Shown here: in pieces, positions 53,337-61,680 of the stretch
Layout of the letters: each line of letters begins with the position of its first letter
How positions within the stretch are numbered: the stretch's first letter is position 1
NCBI GenBank assembly: GCA_965228475.1
Contig: OZ245817.1
Span: 320,001-384,000, forward strand
DNA length: 64,000 nucleotides
Direction: 5' to 3'
Source: Myxococcota bacterium
GTDB lineage: Bacteria > Myxococcota_A > UBA9160 > JAFDDA01
Notes under the pieces: model-generated
The model's database searches: none
Seen by the model: the letters and a program-made list of their open reading frames with translations, nothing else
Told to the model about the DNA's origin: nothing
Program-made: the position numbers and the translations under genes

Positions 53337-55982
53337 CTACTGGATGTCGGCTGCGGTGATCTCGGTCTCGATGAAGGGCCAACCGTTGCCGGAGCTGTAG
53401 AAGAGCCGGACGTAGAGGGTTCGGCCGTCGGTCGGAAGCCCGTCGACGGACGTCTGGGTGGCGGTGCCGAGGGATCCACTGTCGTAGAGGTCGCTCGCGC
53501 CGGGCGTGGAGCCGACGTAGAGCCACCACTCGTCGACGGGGGTTCCGTTCGCGTTCCAGTTGAGGTCGAGTGTGGCCCCCTGAAGCGTGGCCGGCGCCGT
53601 CATCTCGGGGGTCGCGGGCTCGATGTCGGCTGCAACGACCTGGGCTTCGACGAAGGGCCATCCGTTGCCCGAGCTGTAGAAGAGCCGGAGGTAGAGGGTT
53701 CGGCCGTCGGTGGGAAGCCCGTAGACGACCGTTTGGGCGGCGGTGCCGAGGGAGCCGCTGTCATGGAGGTCGCTCGCGCCGGGCGTGGAGCCGACGTAGA
53801 GCCACCACTCGTCGACGGGCGTTCCGTTGTCGCTCCAACTGAGCCCGAGTGCCGGCCCCGGGATCATCGCGGGGGCTGTGATCTCGGGCTCCACGGGCTG
53901 GATGTCGGCGGCGGTGACCTGGGTCTCGACGTAGGGCCAACCGTTGCCGGAGGTGTAGAAGAGCCGGACGTAGAGGGTCCGTCCGTCGGTGGGGAGCCCG
54001 TCGACGATGGTCTGGGTGGCGGTGCCGAGGGAGCCGCTGTCATGGAGGTCGCTCGCGCCGGGCGTGGAGCCGACGTAGAGCCACCACTCGTCGACGGGCG
54101 TTCCGTTGTCGCTCCAACTGAGCCCGAGCGCCGGCCCCGGAATCATCGCAGGGGCCGTGATCTCGGGCTCCACGGGTTGGATGTCGGCGGCGGTGACCTG
54201 GGCATCGACGTAGGGCCACCCGTTGCCCGAGGTGTAGAAGAGCCGGACGTAGAGGATCCGCCCGTCGGTCGGGAGCCCCTCGACGGTGGTCTGGGTGGCG
54301 GTGCCGAGGGAGCCGCTGTCATGGAGGTCGCTCGCGCCGGGCGTGGAGCCGACGTAGAGCCACCACTCGTCGACGGGCGTTCCGTTGTCGCTCCAACTGA
54401 GCCCGAGCGCCGACCCCGGGATCGTCGCAGGGGCGGTGATCTCGGGGATCGCGGGTTGGATGTCGGCGGCGGTGACCTGGGCGTCGACGTAGGGCCATCC
54501 GTTGCCCGAGGTGTAGAAGAGCCGGACGTAGAGGGTCCGTCCGTCGGTCGGGAGCCCCTCGACGGTGGTCTCGGTGGCGGTGCCGAGGGATCCACTGTCG
54601 TACAGGTCGCTCGCGCCCGGGGAAGACCCGACGTAGAGCCACCACTCGTCGACCGGGAGTCCGTTGTCGCTCCAACTCATGGCCAGGGTCGAACCGGGGA
54701 GGGTCGGGGGCGCCGTGATCTCGGGGATCACGGGCTCGATGTCGGCGGCGGTGATCTGGGTCTCGACGTAGGGCCAGCCGTTCCCATTGCTGTAGAAGAG
54801 CCGGACGTAGAGGGTGCGCCCGTCGGTCGGGAGCCCTTGGACGGTGGTCTGGGTCGCGGTGCCGAGGGATCCACTGTCGTAGAGGTCGCTCGCGCCCGGC
54901 GTGGACCCGACGTAGAGCCACCACTCGCTCACGTTGTGCCCGATGCCCTCCCAGGTGACCGTGGTCGAATCGCTGACGAGTTCGGTGAGCGGCGCCGGGC
55001 TCGTGATTTCCGGCGGGTCGTCCGGCGTGAACTGCGCCGTGAGCGTGTAGATCCCGGTCTCACCTTCATAGTAGGAAGTGGCATCGATGAAGTAGGTGCC
55101 CGGCGCAACCGGGAGAGAGATGTAGGAGTTGGTTCCGCCGCCTCCGTCATCGTTTTCGACCCGGATGTTTTGGGGCCCGCCCGTGAGGATCAGGTACGTG
55201 TCGAGCTGCACGGACGACATGGAGATCGTCAGCTGCCCCGGCACCGGGATGGTGAACCGATAGGCATCGAACAAGGTGTCGTCGACGCCGGAGGCTTCCG
55301 AGTGGAAACAATCGGTCGCCGCGAGCGTTCCTTGGATCGACGAGTACGGCGAGATCGTCTGTTCCTCGGAGCAGCCCCCGTAGAGCGTGTCGACACCAAC
55401 GATGTCGTCCCTCAGAGGGGCTTGGGTGTTCCCGATGAATGCCGCCATCAAGTTGGGAGCCGCGCTGTGCCCCAACCCCATGACGTGACCGAGCTCGTGA
55501 GCGGCGACGCGACGGAAGTCGATTGCGAACGAGGAGAGGGGGCCGTTGTAGACGTTCCAGTTCATGGTGGAGTTGCCGTTGAAGATGATGTCGCTCTCCA
55601 CGATCTTCGCGCCCAGGGTCGAGGTCAGCGTCACGGCCAGGCCGTTCGCGCCGAAGGAACCCCCACACACCGTCAACTCGAAATCCACTCCGTTTCTCTC
55701 GTCGGAGAGGCTGCACGGGCTGGAGAAGTTCGTGGTGGTCGAGAACTCGAAGACCGTGCTCGTATTCCACGAGGCGGCGGCCTGAGCGAAGGCGTCGTTC
55801 CACGAAATCCCGTTCGGGCTGACGTAGCCGTCGAAGGCGTTGAAGATGTCGCCGTGGACGGTGGTCGCGCCTCCGGGCCAGCGGATGTCGTTCAGGACGA
55901 AGGCGGAGCCCTTCGGAGCGAGCAGCATGGACGCGACCCCGATGAAGGCCGCCAGCGCGATGGATGCGGAACGGATCTTCAT
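53337..55982 (-). CDS. Matrixin (M10) zinc metalloprotease + PPC-like domain + six 93-aa repeats
   Basis: HELGHVMGLGH and Met-turn (NLMA); DTYLIL...ENDDGGGGTNS; WWLYVGSTPGASDL repeated six times. Confidence 0.88.
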   Translation of the reverse strand: MKIRSASIALAAFIGVASMLLAPKGSAFVLNDIRWPGGATTVHGDIFNAFDGYVSPNGISWNDAFAQAAASWNTSTVFEFSTTTNFSSPCSLSDERNGVDFELTVCGGSFGANGLAVTLTSTLGAKIVESDIIFNGNSTMNWNVYNGPLSSFAIDFRRVAAHELGHVMGLGHSAAPNLMAAFIGNTQAPLRDDIVGVDTLYGGCSEEQTISPYSSIQGTLAATDCFHSEASGVDDTLFDAYRFTIPVPGQLTISMSSVQLDTYLILTGGPQNIRVENDDGGGGTNSYISLPVAPGTYFIDATSYYEGETGIYTLTAQFTPDDPPEITSPAPLTELVSDSTTVTWEGIGHNVSEWWLYVGSTPGASDLYDSGSLGTATQTTVQGLPTDGRTLYVRLFYSNGNGWPYVETQITAADIEPVIPEITAPPTLPGSTLAMSWSDNGLPVDEWWLYVGSSPGASDLYDSGSLGTATETTVEGLPTDGRTLYVRLFYTSGNGWPYVDAQVTAADIQPAIPEITAPATIPGSALGLSWSDNGTPVDEWWLYVGSTPGASDLHDSGSLGTATQTTVEGLPTDGRILYVRLFYTSGNGWPYVDAQVTAADIQPVEPEITAPAMIPGPALGLSWSDNGTPVDEWWLYVGSTPGASDLHDSGSLGTATQTIVDGLPTDGRTLYVRLFYTSGNGWPYVETQVTAADIQPVEPEITAPAMIPGPALGLSWSDNGTPVDEWWLYVGSTPGASDLHDSGSLGTAAQTVVYGLPTDGRTLYLRLFYSSGNGWPFVEAQVVAADIEPATPEMTAPATLQGATLDLNWNANGTPVDEWWLYVGSTPGASDLYDSGSLGTATQTSVDGLPTDGRTLYVRLFYSSGNGWPFIETEITAADIQ
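53340..55020 (-). repeat. Six intragenic tandem repeats, 279-bp period
   Basis: GT(G/C)ATCTCGGG recurs near 53600, 53879, 54158, 54437 and 54716; near-identical DNA in the central copies. Confidence 0.92.
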
Positions 55983-56786: not shown

Positions 56787-57650
56787 CTAGGAGGCCCGCG
56801 CGCGCGCGAGGCCCAGGCCGAGGAGGACGAGCAGCGCCACCGACGGCTCCGGCACCGGGCCGCCCGAGGCGCCGAAGCCCCCGAACCCGCCGAAGCCCCC
56901 GCCGCTTCCGCCCGGCCCGGAGCACTCCGGGGCCGCGGTCGGCGATGCGCAGAGATCCATGTCCCACTGGAAGGCGCCGGCCACGTCGTAGGCGCCGGGC
57001 GCGCCCGTGTCGTTCAGGTCGAAGCTCGTGGTGATCTGCGTGAGGACGTTGCCCAGGGTGTCCGCGGTGTAGCCACTCGGGTTGTAGGCGCCGCGCTGCC
57101 CGCTGATGCCGCCGGTCCCCGCAATCTCGATCAGCGTCGCGGGGCCCGCGATCTGGCTGATCGTCGCTCCGTCCATCGTCGGGTCGTCGCCGACGTTGTA
57201 GTCGAAGACGTTGAACAGGCTGACCGAAAGAATCGGGAACGCGGAGAGCGGGTTCACGCCGCGGAAGAGCGATCCGTTCCAGGCGAGGTCGGGCAAACCA
57301 TCGGGGCCGACGGCGGTGATCCCGTAGGTGAGGTTCAGCACGAAGGACTCGCCGAGGAAGTTGAAGGTCGACGTCAGGGAATCCTGGCTCGTTCCGTTCC
57401 CCAGGGAGGTGAAGTTCGTGAACTCGTGAATGATGCCGAAGTCCGCGAGGTAGAGGAGCCAACCCTCGTGGGGGTGACGGTTCTGGGTGAACAGCGGATG
57501 CGAGACGTCCGTGTTCTCGGTGGACGACGCGACGCTGATGGTCGTCTCCCAGTCGAGCGAACCCTGCCCGTCGACGAGGTCGACGAGGAGCGCGTGCGCC
57601 GGGCTCGAAACGAGAAGGGCCAGGGTGAAGACCGCGACGAGTCGACTCAT
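56787..57650 (-). CDS. PEP-CTERM protein with Gly-rich linker
   Basis: Signal peptide (AHA); GGSGGGFGGFGGFG linker; VPEPSVALLVLLGLGLARAR. Confidence 0.85.
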   Translation of the reverse strand: MSRLVAVFTLALLVSSPAHALLVDLVDGQGSLDWETTISVASSTENTDVSHPLFTQNRHPHEGWLLYLADFGIIHEFTNFTSLGNGTSQDSLTSTFNFLGESFVLNLTYGITAVGPDGLPDLAWNGSLFRGVNPLSAFPILSVSLFNVFDYNVGDDPTMDGATISQIAGPATLIEIAGTGGISGQRGAYNPSGYTADTLGNVLTQITTSFDLNDTGAPGAYDVAGAFQWDMDLCASPTAAPECSGPGGSGGGFGGFGGFGASGGPVPEPSVALLVLLGLGLARARAS

Positions 57651-59126: not shown

Positions 59127-59423
59127 CTAGGCGGCCAGCTTCTCGTCGTCGTCGTAGCTGCCAGCCGTGGCGGGCTCGAGCGGCAGCACCGGGGCGCCAT
59201 CGGCGGCCGGCACGGTGCGGAAGGACGGCACCCAATCGCTCACGTTGAAGCCACCGTAGGACTTGTAGGCACCGCGGATCGCCAGGCCGAGGGCGAGATG
59301 CTCGATGAACATCAGCGGCGGCGGGACCTGGGCCACGCCGGTCGAGACGATCACGGTCAGCAGGGTGCCGATTCCGGCCACCAGGGCGAGGGTGTATGCA
59401 GCAAAGATCTTGTCGTTGTCCAA
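59127..59423 (-). CDS. Small hypothetical membrane protein
   Basis: TTG start after GGAG; two hydrophobic segments; flanked by a sigma54 site and a terminator. Confidence 0.55.
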   Translation of the reverse strand: MDNDKIFAAYTLALVAGIGTLLTVIVSTGVAQVPPPLMFIEHLALGLAIRGAYKSYGGFNVSDWVPSFRTVPAADGAPVLPLEPATAGSYDDDEKLAA

Positions 59424-59469
59424 CGGAGTGTCTCCATGAGCGGGTCAAAAACGATATGCCCCGGGGAAT

Positions 59470-59485
59470 TGCAGGGGGCGTGCCA
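59470..59485 (-). promoter_or_regulatory. Sigma54 -24/-12 promoter
   Basis: TGGCACGCCCCCTGCA (GG-N10-GC) about 45 nt upstream of 59423. Confidence 0.65.
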
Positions 59486-59758
59486 GGGAAGCCCGCGGGG
59501 CGAAGAATTCTGGCGCCCGCCCGGTCGGTCGTCGGATCGCCCTCTAACCCACTGAAAACGTTCACCTAAAACGGCAGCCACCGGGCGGCGTGGGCGGGGT
59601 TGCCCGGCCCGGAGCCCACCCCTCCGTCACCCTGTGCCGATTCCGGCCCCCGGGGTGTGACACCGTTCCCCAGGGGCCCATGCCGCAGTGCGGCATGGCG
59701 CCCCAGCCCCTGGGCGGTCCGCTCTCCTCCGCCTAGACTCGATCCCACGGAGGCCATC

Positions 59759-60046
59759 ATGAGGATTCGGTCCACCCTCGCCGTTCTGGCTCTCTTGCTG
59801 GCGGCGCCGGCCTACGCAGCCCCGGCCACCTACGTGCTCCAGACGCCTGGCGTCACCTGAGGCGGATCCTCTGCGAAGGCCCGTGCGGCCGTCGAGAGCG
59901 TCGAGCATGTGGAGGCCGTCTCCACCGACATGAACGAGCACACCGTGACCGTCACCTTCGATGACGAGAAGACGGGGCTTCCCGCCATCGTCGCGGCGTT
60001 GAACGACGCCGGGTACGTCGTGAAGGACCCGAAGAAGGTCGACTGA
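59759..60046 (+). CDS. Periplasmic heavy-metal-associated (HMA, MerP/CopZ-like) protein with in-frame UGA, candidate selenoprotein (UxxS)
   Basis: GGAGG RBS; signal peptide; PGVT-TGA(59858-60)-GGS aligns to GMTCxxC; frame continues V..V......TVTVTFD...IVAALNDAGY to TGA at 60044-46. Confidence 0.8.
59869..59898 (+). promoter_or_regulatory. Candidate bacterial SECIS hairpin
   Basis: CTCT-G-CGA-A-GGCC[CGTGC]GGCC-G-TCG-AGAG; loop separated from the UGA by 21 nt, with GU at loop positions 2-3. Confidence 0.65.
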
Positions 60047-60135
60047 GGCGCGCCCCGAGCTCGCGCCACCGCCGGCCCCTCGATCTTCGGGCCGCCCGGC
60101 GCGGTGAGGCGCGTATGATCGCCGGGGAGGAAACG

Positions 60136-61680
60136 ATGCACCCTGGCGCCCACGCGGAGAAGACCCCGGACAAGATCGCCTACGTCATGGCCGGCAGCGG
60201 CGAGGCCGTGACCTACCGCGAGCTCGACGAACGCTCGAGTCAGGCCGCAAATCTCCTGCGCTCGGTCGGCCTCCGGCCGGGCGACCACATCGCCCTGTGC
60301 ATGGAGAACAACGCCTCCTACTTCCCGATCTGCTGGGCGGCGCAGCGGTCGGGCCTCTACTTCACCTGCATCAGCTCGCGGCTCACGGCCGAAGAGGTGG
60401 CCTACATCGTCGACGACTGCGACGCGAAGGTCTTCATCGGCTCGAAGGCGAAGCGGGACGTGACCGAAGGCCTCGCCGAAGCCTGCCCGAAACTCGTGGC
60501 GCGCTTCCTCGTCGGAGACGCGGGCGACGGCTACGAGAACTGGGAGGACGCCGTCGCCGCGCAGCCCGTCGCGCCGAGCGGCGAGGAGGTCGAGGGCGGC
60601 CAGATGCTCTACAGCTCGGGCACCACGGGACGGCCGAAGGGCGTGAAGCATCCCCTCACCATGGAGCCCCTCGGGACGCCGCCGCCCCTGGCGCTCGGGA
60701 TCATGGGCATGTACGCGGGCAACGAGGAGAGCATCTACCTCTCGCCCGCACCGCTCTACCACGCCGCACCGCTCGGCTTCACGATGGCGTTCCTGCGACT
60801 CGGCGCGACGGTCATCGTGATGGAGCAGTTCGACGCGGTCGCTGCGCTCGGGCTGATCGAGAAGTACCGCGTGACCCACAGCCAATGGGTGCCCACGATG
60901 TTCGTGCGCATGCTGAAGCTGCCCGAGGCCGATCGCATGCGATCGGACGTCTCGAGCCTCACCCACGCCATCCACGCGGCGGCGCCGTGCCCCGTCCCCG
61001 TGAAGGAGGCGATGATCGAGTGGTGGGGCCCGGTGATCCACGAGTACTACGCCGGCACCGAAGGCAACGGCTTCTGCCGGATCGACAGCCACGAGTGGCT
61101 CGAGCACAAGGGCAGCGTCGGCAAGCCCATCAACGCGATCGTCCACATCCTCGACGAAGAGACCCAGGAAGAGCTGCCGCCGGGCGAGATCGGCGGGGTC
61201 TACTTCGAGAGCGGCGTCCGCTACGAGTATCACAAGGCCCCGGAAAAGACGGCCGACGCCAAGAGCAAGCAGGGCTACACGACGCTCGGCGACGTCGGCT
61301 ACGTCGACGAGGACGGCTTCCTCTACCTGACCGACCGCAAGGCCTTCATGATCATCACCGGCGGCGTGAACGTCTACCCGCAGGAGACCGAGAACTGCCT
61401 CATCACCCACCCGAAGGTCACGGACGTCGCCGTCATCGGCGTTCCGAACGAGGACTTCGGCGAGGAGGTGAAGGCCGTCGTCCAACCGGCGAGCTTGGCC
61501 GACGCGACTCCCGAGCTGGCCGAAGAGCTCATCGCGTACTGCCAGGAGCGCATCGCCGACGTGAAGTGCCCGCGCTCCGTCGACTTCCTCGAAGAACTCC
61601 CCCGGCATCCGACGGGCAAGCTCTACAAGCGCCTGCTCAAGGACCGCTACTGGGGGAAGGCGGACTCGAAGATCGTCTAG
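60136..61680 (+). CDS. Acyl-CoA synthetase (AMP-binding, fatty-acid CoA ligase-like)
   Basis: YSSGTTGRPKG, EYYAGTE, GDVGYVDEDGFLYLTDR, LPR.PTGKL. Confidence 0.95.
   Translation: MHPGAHAEKTPDKIAYVMAGSGEAVTYRELDERSSQAANLLRSVGLRPGDHIALCMENNASYFPICWAAQRSGLYFTCISSRLTAEEVAYIVDDCDAKVFIGSKAKRDVTEGLAEACPKLVARFLVGDAGDGYENWEDAVAAQPVAPSGEEVEGGQMLYSSGTTGRPKGVKHPLTMEPLGTPPPLALGIMGMYAGNEESIYLSPAPLYHAAPLGFTMAFLRLGATVIVMEQFDAVAALGLIEKYRVTHSQWVPTMFVRMLKLPEADRMRSDVSSLTHAIHAAAPCPVPVKEAMIEWWGPVIHEYYAGTEGNGFCRIDSHEWLEHKGSVGKPINAIVHILDEETQEELPPGEIGGVYFESGVRYEYHKAPEKTADAKSKQGYTTLGDVGYVDEDGFLYLTDRKAFMIITGGVNVYPQETENCLITHPKVTDVAVIGVPNEDFGEEVKAVVQPASLADATPELAEELIAYCQERIADVKCPRSVDFLEELPRHPTGKLYKRLLKDRYWGKADSKIV

Follow-up and report, generated by a model that had tools for sequence, protein, structure and literature searches.

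On the forward strand of the window, by which we mean the whole 64,000-nucleotide stretch of Myxococcota DNA analysed here, a reading frame starting at ATG 59759 meets a TGA at codon 34 and then continues for 61 open codons to a second TGA at 60044–60046. A plain list of open reading frames closes this frame at 59860, as an earlier note on this DNA had claimed, and also has an entry at 59909–60046 (45 residues, internal start). The elements from which that note had put together a read-through gene, including the GGAGG ahead of the ATG, are all present in the sequence, and we consider it highly likely that 59759–60046 is one gene encoding a small, exported, MerP-like selenoprotein of the HMA fold. 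The features of the locus are as follows.

59749..59753, + strand: ribosome-binding site GGAGG, 5 nt upstream of ATG 59759, read from the sequence
59759..60046, + strand: whole predicted selenoprotein gene, 95 codons including one selenocysteine codon, then the terminal TGA (translated with TGA = U)
59759..59818, + strand: predicted signal peptide, residues 1–20, ending in AYA; Sec-type, without a lipobox Cys, read from the sequence
59819..60043, + strand: mature domain of about 75 residues with a predicted HMA fold (beta-alpha-beta-beta-alpha-beta), from AF2 and Foldseek
59858..59860, + strand: in-frame TGA, codon 34, in the motif TPGVT-U-GGS, assigned from its conservation, a TGT orthologue and the Cys column of HMA domains
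59869..59898, + strand: SECIS-like hairpin of 11 pairs with one bulge and one mismatch, loop CGUGC at 59882–59886
59875..59893, + strand: conserved hairpin core, alignment columns 24–42, with a four-pair GGCC/GGCC stem, loop CGUGN and two or three further pairs
59927..59941, + strand: loop between strands 2 and 3, Asp57-Met58-Asn-Glu-His61, from residue counts in the family rows
60044..60046, + strand: terminal TGA, the true stop, read from the sequence

Cleavage of the signal peptide is predicted before AP. The possibility that raw reads carry TGC or TGT at codon 34 had been raised in the earlier note, and the assembled contigs of other sequencing runs show TGA: contigs of two runs from two studies span 59700–60100 with zero differences from the stretch, and that of a third run spans 59700–59868, the TGA included, also with zero differences, although one of the agreeing contigs may be the source assembly itself. 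A promoter and terminator scan of 59300–60250 gave nothing usable, and no RNA runs are listed on record for the stretch.

Conservation and probable decoding of the in-frame TGA

Among 401 sampled genomes of the phylum, twelve, all from one order, carried a homologue with TGA in the same column (116–141 bits), the next match being a CxxC form at 65 bits. At the level of the order, a homologue with exactly one TGA and 47–63% identity was found in nine of 61 genomes, the source genome included. Of 20 family loci in further public genomes, 19 have TGA at this codon and one has TGT, and all 61 family members among 65 metagenome loci that cover the site have TGA. Across 73 distinct family sequences the TGA is invariant (73/73). 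The Cys (TGT) orthologue, L069, is nested within the Sec forms with support of 95/98, and more distant Cys forms (L019 and P0023–P0039) also align to the TGA column. The earlier note had looked to homologues, either with TGA and hairpin kept or with Cys and an unconserved TGA; the relatives are of the former kind, with the TGT orthologue in the same column.

Upstream of the TGA, all 27 aligned genes have a purine-rich ribosome-binding site, an ATG or GTG start and a signal peptide with a basic n-region, a hydrophobic core and a small-x-small end. In the family alignment residues on both sides of U are conserved and synonymous sites vary. Judged from these alignments, the gene is a member of a whole putative selenoprotein family in marine Myxococcota. 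Its carriers have rich selenoproteomes and are uncultured Myxococcota, for the most part from the sea.

The presence of selA, selB, selC and selD, named in the earlier note as a check, was borne out in the source genome, where all four lie above curated cut-offs: SelA scored 460 bits, SelB 311 bits and SelD 257 bits, and tRNA-Sec 69.9 bits, with the anticodon tca according to ARAGORN. SelA also occurs in all eight relatives that carry the TGA form. At least seven further genes of the genome have an in-frame TGA and belong to known selenoprotein types, the TGAs being spanned by matches to the GPx, UGSC and Prx families, a deiodinase relative, two AhpD-related proteins and a SelL-related protein.

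The hairpin described in the earlier note at 59869–59898, with the loop CGUGC, folds as stated (−14.2 kcal/mol, z −2.65, with three of 200 shuffles equally stable). The longer stretch 59855–59920 folds differently at minimum energy, with a stability that does not exceed that of its shuffles (z 0.22); stability alone is therefore no evidence, and it is conservation that carries weight. Only the top of the hairpin is conserved, amounting to just six to seven pairs, whilst the lower stem (59869–59874 with 59894–59898) pairs in 14 to 50 of the 73 relatives. Within the core, pairs 28–38 and 29–37 are invariant in the 73 sequences, pair 30–36 is CG in 71 and UA in two, a compensatory change, and is never unpaired, and pair 24–42 is GC in 58 sequences, AU in four, CG in two and UA in two. 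Overall 71.7% of hairpin cells are paired against 30–43% when the partner strand is slid, a comparison in which the hairpin is favoured because its structure was derived from the same 73 sequences. The covariation score (0.103 vs 0.075) was reached by none of 500 shuffles; it rests on few events, and the two UA sequences may share ancestry.

Constraint is also visible at synonymous positions. Third-codon-position entropy is 0.10–0.39 bits in the hairpin core vs 0.7–1.9 bits elsewhere, and the Arg codon of the hairpin is CGT in 72 of 73 sequences, compared with 7 of 116 Arg codons (6%) in six genes of the window and 4 of 39 other Arg codons of the family. Since the hairpin overlaps the conserved residues A-R-A/E-A-V, part of its conservation stems from the protein. 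The apical loop starts 21 nt after the UGA and has an invariant G at loop positions 2 and 4; in five of nine other selenoprotein genes of the genome, the loops read from folds lie 16–21 nt after the UGA. Bacterial SECIS elements are described, in PMC1088965, as a stem-loop just after the UGA with a small apical loop containing G, and the family hairpin agrees with that wording, with its CGUGN loop, frozen synonymous sites and one compensatory pair. A search of 59700–60100 against Rfam at E values up to 10 returned neither a SECIS nor another relevant family.

These observations bear on three other readings of codon 34. A pseudogene, its TGA having come from a Cys codon by nonsense mutation or by a sequencing error, would fit the distance of one base between TGA and TGT or TGC and the TGT of one relative. 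This reading is contradicted by the invariant TGA in independent assemblies, by protein-level constraint on both flanks, by the identical letters in the contigs of other runs and by the nesting of the Cys form inside the Sec forms, and is extremely improbable. We also regard as very improbable that the TGA at 59858 is a true stop followed by a separate small gene with an internal GTG or ATG start (for example at 59909). Gene callers do yield just such stubs, and the list of open reading frames has one at 59909–60046. This stub would, however, lose strand 1, the loop and the greater part of helix 1, whereas pLDDT is above 95 for the predicted fold as a whole. The start codons of the stubs are at no conserved position, and the upstream ribosome-binding site and signal peptide, conserved in 27 of 27 genes, are always in frame with the downstream part.

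Three database proteins have a standard residue in this column (W in P0003 and P0137, R in P0005), as would be expected if a variant code or near-cognate decoding placed Trp, Gly or Cys at the TGA. For P0003, however, the closest relatives at the DNA level (87–90% identical) have TGA, so that its W is consistent with a gene having been called under a TGA = Trp table. Moreover, the gene and most of its relatives end at TGA, which makes TGA a stop in these genomes, and a gene in which TGA serves both as selenocysteine and as stop argues that the codon is not reassigned genome-wide. Together with the full Sec machinery and the conserved hairpin, this renders a standard residue exceedingly unlikely. 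We infer that codon 34 is, with very high probability, decoded as selenocysteine.

Fold, reactive site and genomic neighbourhood

The assignment to the HMA fold, made in the earlier note from the letters alone, holds: the read-through product (P0002) matches Pfam HMA (PF00403) with an E value of 7.6e-14 and 52.3 bits, against a cut-off of 24.8, and a profile search of solved structures places the TGA column at the first metal-binding Cys of CopA, MerP and CopZ. The AF2 model has a pLDDT of 87.9 overall and of 95–97 over residues 21–90, with low values in the signal peptide, and its best Foldseek match is MerP (1osd; target-normalised TM 0.89, rmsd 1.6 Å, 36% identity).

The proposed exported, single-selenol UxxS form likewise stood up, its signal peptide included. 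All 26 family rows have U-x-x-S/T (T in 23, S in three) and none has another Cys in the mature part, and the two-Cys site (C-x-x-C) of Pfam HMA is accordingly absent from the whole family (26/26 rows). With the second Cys replaced by Thr or Ser and no other Cys, there is one selenol per protein. Of the 26 rows, 24 have Met58, 23 have His61 and 22 have Asp57, all in the loop joining strands 2 and 3. A His at the position of His61 occurs in 11 of 16 wider single-Cys relatives vs none of six CxxC forms, both small samples, which suggests that its presence tracks loss of the second Cys. Met58 and His61 are candidate partners of Sec34, to which the topology of the fold would bring them close.

As the earlier note had observed for mer and cop partners, there are no mer or cop genes among the neighbours, and MerT (PF02411) had no match in the single-contig, 96%-complete genome, in which the only other HMA domain sits in a 777-residue open reading frame. 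From 40 family loci 107 neighbouring open reading frames were picked, of which three were left out as duplicates of L099 in L101; the remaining 104, scanned against Pfam, were heterogeneous, with a few transposases or integrases, and no neighbour was conserved across the 40 loci. An all-against-all comparison of open reading frames from 26 loci returned nothing beyond scattered short-chain dehydrogenases and antisense shadows of the gene itself, and the window's own neighbours had no match at other family loci. Given such heterogeneity, genomic context gives no functional clue.

Possible roles of the selenol

The following sequence of events is proposed. Translation would begin at ATG 59759, the UGA at codon 34 would be decoded by SelB and tRNA-Sec, recruited by the small hairpin in the coding sequence, and translation would stop at the second TGA, at 60044. 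The product would be routed via the Sec translocon to the periplasm by its signal peptide of 20 residues; the domain would there take an HMA fold of the MerP/CopZ type, in which the N-terminus of helix 1 would present the selenol. The selenolate could then act as one metal ligand, the lost Cys being replaced by His61 and Met58, a second protomer or a small thiol, and the protein may serve as a scavenger, buffer or chaperone outside any mer system.

As its role we would propose, at about an even balance of probability, the binding of a thiophilic metal, either Cu(I) or Hg(II)/Ag(I)/Cd(II), under the oxidising conditions of the periplasm. In its favour are the position of U at the first metal-binding Cys, a best family likeness, signal peptide included, to MerP, the tracking of His61 with loss of the second Cys, and Met58 in nearly every family row (24/26); against it are the absence of the two-Cys chelate, of MerT and of any conserved neighbour, and the redox nature of all the other confirmed selenoproteins of the genome. 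Met and His serve as ligands in Cu(I) sites of the periplasm, a compartment in which a CxxC pair is easily oxidised. We suggest tentatively, at a little under even probability, that the HMA fold may have been turned into a periplasmic one-selenol device in which the oxidisable CxxC is replaced by Sec and His (and Met).

The same gene and the same decoding are also compatible with a selenol that is a redox or chalcogen-transfer centre and not a metal ligand, in the form of a periplasmic monoselenol oxidoreductase, a peroxidase or a carrier of sulfane sulfur or selenium, which might form a selenenyl-sulfide with a partner and use His61 as acid/base. A U-x-x-S/T following a strand, at the N-terminus of a helix, has the layout of CxxS/CxxT redox motifs, which Fomenko and Gladyshev reportedly set out in 2002. 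All seven other confirmed selenoprotein genes of the genome encode redox types, and the Cys/His pair of the exported single-Cys clade would suit catalysis as well as metal binding. UxxS and UxxT occur, moreover, in redox selenoproteins such as arsenate reductase, GPx-like and OsmC-like proteins (Table 1 of PMC13188914), and in the same review most prokaryotic selenoproteins are thought to be redox proteins. Against a redox centre, all the closest families, in sequence as in structure, bind metals, Met58 (24/26 rows) is a typical soft-metal ligand with no obvious redox role, and no thioredoxin-like or Dsb-like partner is conserved among the neighbours. We know of no HMA-fold oxidoreductase. On this evidence a redox or chalcogen-transfer centre is possible, with a probability clearly below even.

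Were the one-selenol device real, it would be without precedent, either as a selenolate-based trap or chaperone in the periplasm for trace marine soft metals (Cu, Hg, Ag, Cd) or as a seleno-oxidoreductase or chalcogen carrier of the HMA fold; in both cases its working principle would be undescribed for this fold, and the unnamed exported single-Cys HMA clade would be functionally distinct from metallochaperones. The replacement of CxxC by U/C-xx-S/T, accompanied by a newly conserved His, offers a testable rebuild of a cytoplasmic-style thiolate site for an oxidising periplasm, and the gene may be relevant to the handling of trace metals or selenium in sea water.

Annotation and relation to known systems

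Members of the family in the big protein collections are all either stubs of 45–58 residues or entries with the wrong residue at the Sec column; stubs made up 15 of 17 matches in one protein search, the truncated entries for relatives being 53–58 residues long, and the name given by JGI is ‘copper chaperone CopZ’. No NCBIfam model, selenoprotein models included, reaches its cut-off on this protein. With such entries and no model at cut-off, annotation pipelines keep missing the family, which a model built from the family alignment would fix. The family does not appear among the 119 families and subfamilies in the accessible part of a 2026 review (PMC13188914), and a single-Sec exported HMA form is undescribed in the available text of selenoprotein reviews, within a search of the openly accessible literature.

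The best NCBIfam match is MerP (TIGR02052; 1osd, 1afi), at 62.8 bits over residues 4–86, below the equivalog cut-off of 92.55. Both proteins consist of a signal peptide and one HMA domain, are of equal length and have the reactive residue in the same loop column. MerP, however, has two Cys where the protein here has one Sec and a Thr/Ser, and works with MerT in a mer operon whereas the present protein is without either; His61 and Met58 are specific to the family described here. The CopZ/Atx1 chaperones and the HMA domains of P-type ATPases share the fold and the position of the reactive residue, but are cytoplasmic with a two-chalcogen chelate, in contrast to an exported protein with one selenol. 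Against the CopZ models NF033795, NF033794 and NF047957 the protein scores 37.2, 27.4 and 26.9 bits, with cut-offs of 85–95.

Selenoprotein forms of HMA-type domains are already known. NF041115, the UxxU metal-binding (seleno)protein, has an HMA-type domain in which the Cys of the metal loop is replaced by Sec and aligns with residues 23–86; the protein here scores 32.9 bits against a cut-off of 95, and has one Sec and no second chalcogen where NF041115 has two Sec. This model corresponds to the ‘putative mercuric reductase’ of Olavius symbionts listed in PMC13188914 and PMC9312934. To NF045683, the MerT/CopZ fusion-like selenoprotein, the match (33.1 bits, cut-off 375) is limited to the C-terminal HMA part, model positions 163–226 of 235, and the fused MerT membrane part is missing. 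The selenoprotein form of ‘cation-transporting ATPase E1-E2’ has UxxC (Table 1 of PMC13188914). To these forms, which keep two chalcogens, the present family adds one that is exported and has a single Sec in its HMA domain. A GOS ‘mercuric transport protein MerP’ selenoprotein (PMC2398784) consists of two identical 33-residue read fragments with a different motif, U and then C, and does not belong to the present family.

Exported HMA-like proteins with a single Cys in a C-x-x-S/T motif (P0023, P0029, P0031, P0033 and P0039, and the same-order Cys form L019/P0022) account for 16 of 27 full-length single-domain matches. They have, like the protein here, a signal peptide, one domain, a Cys in the U column, a Ser or Thr at +3 and often a His at the start of strand 3 (11/16), and differ in having Cys in place of Sec, in rarely having Met58 (3/16) and in an identity of 30–45%. 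The Sec clade probably arose from this wider family of Cys-containing proteins.

An in-frame TGA conserved across a gene family

We consider it highly probable that the gene at 59759-60046 (+) encodes a real, exported HMA protein with one Sec, decoded through a compact SECIS. The earlier note, made from the sequence alone, had described a start codon with a ribosome-binding site, a TGA at codon 34 and 61 further open codons, each of which is present in the window (70% G+C).

Features of the gene
59749-59753, +, GGAGG ribosome-binding site, 5 nt ahead of the ATG (sequence)
59759, +, ATG start codon, opening a frame of a 20-residue signal-peptide-like N-terminus and 13 residues, then the TGA
59858-59860, +, in-frame TGA, codon 34 (translation of the frame)
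60044-60046, +, TGA closing the downstream open frame of 61 sense codons (translation of the frame)

The mechanical ORF list cuts this frame at 59860 and gives a 45-residue ORF from GTG 59909. Coding signal was found on both sides of the TGA. All 27 aligned family genes (25 Sec forms, the TGT form L069 and a Cys form from genome G033) have a purine-rich site ahead of an ATG (25) or GTG (2); the N-terminus that follows is basic, then hydrophobic, then small-x-small, and shares its frame with the TGA and the codons beyond it. In the codons immediately 5' of the TGA the residue is kept and the third base varies across 73 sequences, a nearby Val codon being GTC in 57, GTG in 13, GTT in 2 and GTA in 1.

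The same-order survey was a six-frame search of 61 genomes using the read-through protein as query. Nine of these, the window's own included, carry a homologue that is 47-63% identical and has a single internal TGA, and the TGA column is identical in all nine extracted genes (T-P-G-V-[VT]-U-G-[GK]-[ST]). One more genome, G033, has a more distant homologue without a stop and with Cys at the TGA column, and in the remaining five matching genomes the matches are weak (22-26 bits) and stop-free, four lying within ORFs of 760-971 residues. A phylum-wide profile search (401 genomes) found the TGA form in 12, all within the window's order, at 116-141 bits, with a gap down to 65 bits below which matches lack an in-frame TGA and are mostly CxxC forms. 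Scanning one genome per species across the prokaryotes gave 21 loci, 20 of them of the family, with TGA in 19 and TGT in one (L069); a metagenome scan gave 65 loci, with TGA in 61 of the 61 family members covering the site, the other four being a fragment without the site and three distant Cys forms. Once identical 60-mers were removed, TGA stood in 73/73 distinct sequences. Both kinds of homologue sought by the earlier note, with a conserved TGA and with Cys at this column, exist. A maximum-likelihood tree (27 rows, rooted at its midpoint only) places the TGT form together with two Sec forms at support 95/98, which looks like a recent Sec-to-Cys change.

In the all-prokaryote scan the carriers are MAGs whose label is Myxococcota or 'Deltaproteobacteria', and many of their sample names are marine; three carry other phylum labels. 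These three (L067, L078 and L079) come from short contigs in MAGs assigned to Planctomycetota, 'Proteobacteria TMED72' and Gammaproteobacteria, and their sequences cluster tightly with Myxococcota members; transfer across phyla seems less likely than mis-binning or outdated labels.

The TGA also recurs in contigs of further sequencing runs: 59700-60100 shows zero differences in contigs of two other runs (two studies) and a third run is identical up to 59868, although one of these three contigs may be the source of the window assembly. The contig of the third run (X3) matches exactly over 59700-59868 and continues with 255 letters unlike the window, diverging 8 nt past the Sec codon, just ahead of the hairpin; a variant strain, a rearrangement or a break in the assembly could account for this.

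The hairpin and the selenocysteine machinery

A SECIS-like hairpin had been proposed at 59869-59898. Folded alone this region reaches -14.2 kcal/mol (z -2.65), and of the proposed structure the upper part stood (columns 24-30 and 36-42, 59875-59881 and 59887-59893), being all that is kept across the 73 sequences, whilst the lower stem is paired in just 14 to 50 of 73. Two G-C pairs of the upper stem are invariant. Pair 30-36 is kept in every sequence, as C-G in 71 and as U-A in 2, both changes falling in synonymous Ala codons; pair 27-39 is G-C in 65 and G-U in 4, pair 25-41 A-U in 56 and G-U in 14, and pair 24-42 G-C in 58, A-U in 4, C-G in 2 and U-A in 2, whilst pair 26-40 forms in 31/73. 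Overall 71.7% of cells are paired vs 30-43% with the partner slid, and the covariation score is 0.103 vs 0.075 in shuffles (0/500 as high), contrasts that are inflated because the sequences are related and the structure was derived from the same sequences. We therefore place more weight on synonymous sites. Third-position entropy is 0.10-0.39 bits in the five stem-loop codons vs 0.7-1.9 in the other sense codons of the 60-mer, and the loop Arg codon is CGT in 72/73 (CGG in one), a codon used for 7/116 Arg residues in six window genes and 4/39 other Arg residues in 25 family genes. The loop, CGUGN, starts 21 nt past the UGA with G invariant at its positions 2 and 4. The conserved core (19 nt, from 14 nt after the UGA) resembles the minimal E. 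coli fdhF element in size and spacing; Rfam gave no family match for the hairpin region.

The genome (one contig, 5.0 Mb, 96% complete) holds the machinery that the earlier note had named as a check, with SelA at 460 bits, SelB at 311 (cut-off 242), SelD at 257 (cut-off 125) and tRNA-Sec at 69.9 bits, called by ARAGORN as tRNA-SeC with anticodon tca. SelA occurs in 52/61 same-order genomes, including 8/8 relatives with the TGA form, a weak test given this high background. A genome scan turned up 86 in-frame TGAs flanked on either side by a frame-specific GC3 signal, and 16 of these candidates, chosen by local motif, were scanned against NCBIfam. In at least seven further genes outside the window (L158, L159, L160, L161, L163, L167 and L168) a match to a known selenoprotein type spans the TGA.

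Further genome genes whose family match spans an in-frame TGA (NCBIfam)
Glutathione peroxidase, family match
UGSC-family (seleno)protein, 158.8 vs cut-off 125
Peroxiredoxin, family match
Deiodinase-family protein, 200.7, under cut-off 250
Two AhpD-related (seleno)proteins, 359 and 284 vs cut-off 175
SelL-related redox protein, 119.7 vs cut-off 120

Two weaker, less certain candidates (L162 and L155) are redoxin-like, with W-U-P-Y-C and W-U-P-Y-T; one is a weak Prx-like case, and the W-U-P-Y-T candidate had no NCBIfam match. L156, L157 and L164 had no match either, and four of the 16 were rejected as read-through genes, being neighbouring genes that share one frame. The best hairpin after the UGA was computed for nine of the selenoprotein-type genes and loop positions were read in five (Prx, SelL-related G-U-P-F-C, UGSC, W-U-P-Y-C and deiodinase-related, the last from an alternative hairpin picked by eye), where small G-containing loops lie 16-21 nt past the UGA, comparable to the 21 nt of the family gene. 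The GPx, the two AhpD-related genes and W-U-P-Y-T have other best hairpins and were left out of this range.

Fold and the single-chalcogen clade

The 95-residue read-through product matches Pfam HMA at 52.3 bits (cut-off 24.8). Its closest NCBIfam model is MerP (62.8 bits over residues 4-86, under the cut-off of 92.55), with CopZ models scoring lower. AlphaFold2 (27-row alignment) predicts a beta-alpha-beta-beta-alpha-beta fold with pLDDT 95-97 for residues 21-90 and a low-scoring signal peptide, residue 34 standing immediately ahead of helix 1. By Foldseek the model is close to MerP 1osd (TM 0.89 to target, rmsd 1.6 A, 36% identity), with CopZ, Atx1 and ATPase metal-binding domains as further neighbours. 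A profile search of solved structures aligned the U column with the first metal-loop Cys, where the UGA had been placed from the sequence, and the Thr/Ser column with the second. The proposed change of CxxC to UxxS with a single selenol is likewise borne out, as U-x-x-S/T: the +3 residue is Thr in 23/26 and Ser in 3/26 family rows, and the mature part lacks any other Cys in 26/26. The strand 2-3 loop keeps Asp57 (22/26), Met58 (24/26) and His61 (23/26, Asn in 3), and we infer from the fold topology that it would lie close to the metal loop, the two being at the same end of the sheet and strand 3 pairing with strand 1.

Searched against 1.84 billion representative proteins, the profile had 5936 matches at E <=0.001 (234 at <=1e-10). 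Among the best 150 of these, 27 are full-length single-domain proteins (85-135 residues): 16 exported-looking forms with one Cys at the U column and Ser/Thr at +3, 6 classic CxxC forms, and 5 others, in which the U column has Ser, Asn, Asp or Trp, or else Cys combined with Ala at +3. In these small samples His61 occurs in 11/16 single-Cys forms vs 0/6 CxxC forms, and Asp57 is common to both (15/16 and 5/6). The Sec family thus appears, from this comparison and the His61 counts, to belong as one branch to a wider single-chalcogen HMA clade, which has no name and carries a His where the second Cys was lost. Three exported relatives (P0030, P0038 and P0118) have Ser, Asn or Asp at the reactive column and neither Cys nor Sec; the scaffold therefore exists also without a chalcogen.

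Role, genomic context and known forms

The role we favour, with confidence evenly balanced, is that the selenolate of Sec34 binds a thiophilic metal in the periplasm; the rest of the site would come from His61 or Met58, from a second protomer or from a small thiol. This role is favoured because all relatives detectable by sequence or fold are metal binders, because Sec occupies the metal column, because Met and His are the usual Cu(I) ligands in the periplasm, and because a lone selenol escapes the intramolecular disulfide by which CxxC is inactivated outside the cytoplasm. The main rival, a redox or chalcogen-carrier role for Sec, is one we entertain tentatively: redox sites classically place U/C-x-x-S/T at the N-terminus of a helix, and redox proteins make up most selenoproteins, among them all the others found in this genome.

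Hand-over to MerT in the manner of MerP is unsupported, the 96%-complete genome having no MerT match; its sole other HMA domain lies within a 777-residue ORF elsewhere. Consistent with the earlier note's report of no mer/cop genes nearby, the window neighbours belong to other families or to none.

Window neighbours of the gene
98-residue membrane-like ORF, no family match
DUF2238 membrane protein
157-residue ORF, no family match
Acyl-CoA-synthetase-like AMP-binding enzyme
DUF5924/DUF2914 protein

No neighbour gene is conserved around the family loci, and at L068, L072 and L121 the gene has mobile-element genes nearby (a phage-type integrase, a group II intron reverse transcriptase, IS66 and IS110 transposases); the two observations hint at a small gene that moves around. 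Elsewhere in the window, 53337-55982 (-) encodes an 881-residue exported protein with, by eye, a zinc-metalloprotease-like motif near the N-terminus followed by about six tandem repeats of roughly 95 residues, and 56787-57650 (-) a 287-residue secreted protein whose C-terminus has a Pro-Glu-Pro motif, then a hydrophobic segment and basic residues, and so resembles a PEP-CTERM sorting signal.

A collection of 5.8 billion proteins contains 15 truncated family entries of 53-58 residues, which are either unnamed or labelled 'copper chaperone CopZ', and two full-length calls with W or R at the Sec column. Three database proteins (P0003, P0137 and P0005) have a standard residue there, Trp twice and Arg once. 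The closest DNA relatives of P0003 (87-90% identical) have TGA, and its Trp may therefore be the product of gene calling under a code that reads TGA as Trp; no code table assigns TGA to Arg, and that residue may reflect either a genuine CGA/AGA variant or an error.

Among the 119 prokaryotic selenoprotein families and subfamilies in Table 1 of a 2026 review there is no exported single-Sec HMA or PF00403 entry (PMC13188914), and the table passages of a 2022 review located by term search contain no such entry (PMC9312934). The GOS 'MerP' selenoprotein was rejected as the same family, being a different short fragment (PMC2398784). No paper in open full text combined 'selenoprotein' with 'HMA domain', paywalled papers and GenBank record annotation lying outside this search. 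Given its absence as a Sec form from these review tables, the literature searched and the protein collection, we rate this a new selenoprotein family, defined by a single chalcogen and an export signal. Sec-bearing HMA-type forms are known, namely a UxxU 'metal-binding protein' and UxxC in E1-E2 ATPases, as tabulated in the 2026 review (PMC13188914), and NCBIfam already has a MerT/CopZ fusion selenoprotein model. The read-through product scores far under the cut-offs of both NCBIfam HMA-type selenoprotein models, at 32.9 vs 95 for NF041115 (UxxU) and 33.1 vs 375 for NF045683 (MerT/CopZ fusion). The known Sec-HMA forms keep a two-chalcogen motif, whereas the new family has one chalcogen and is exported.
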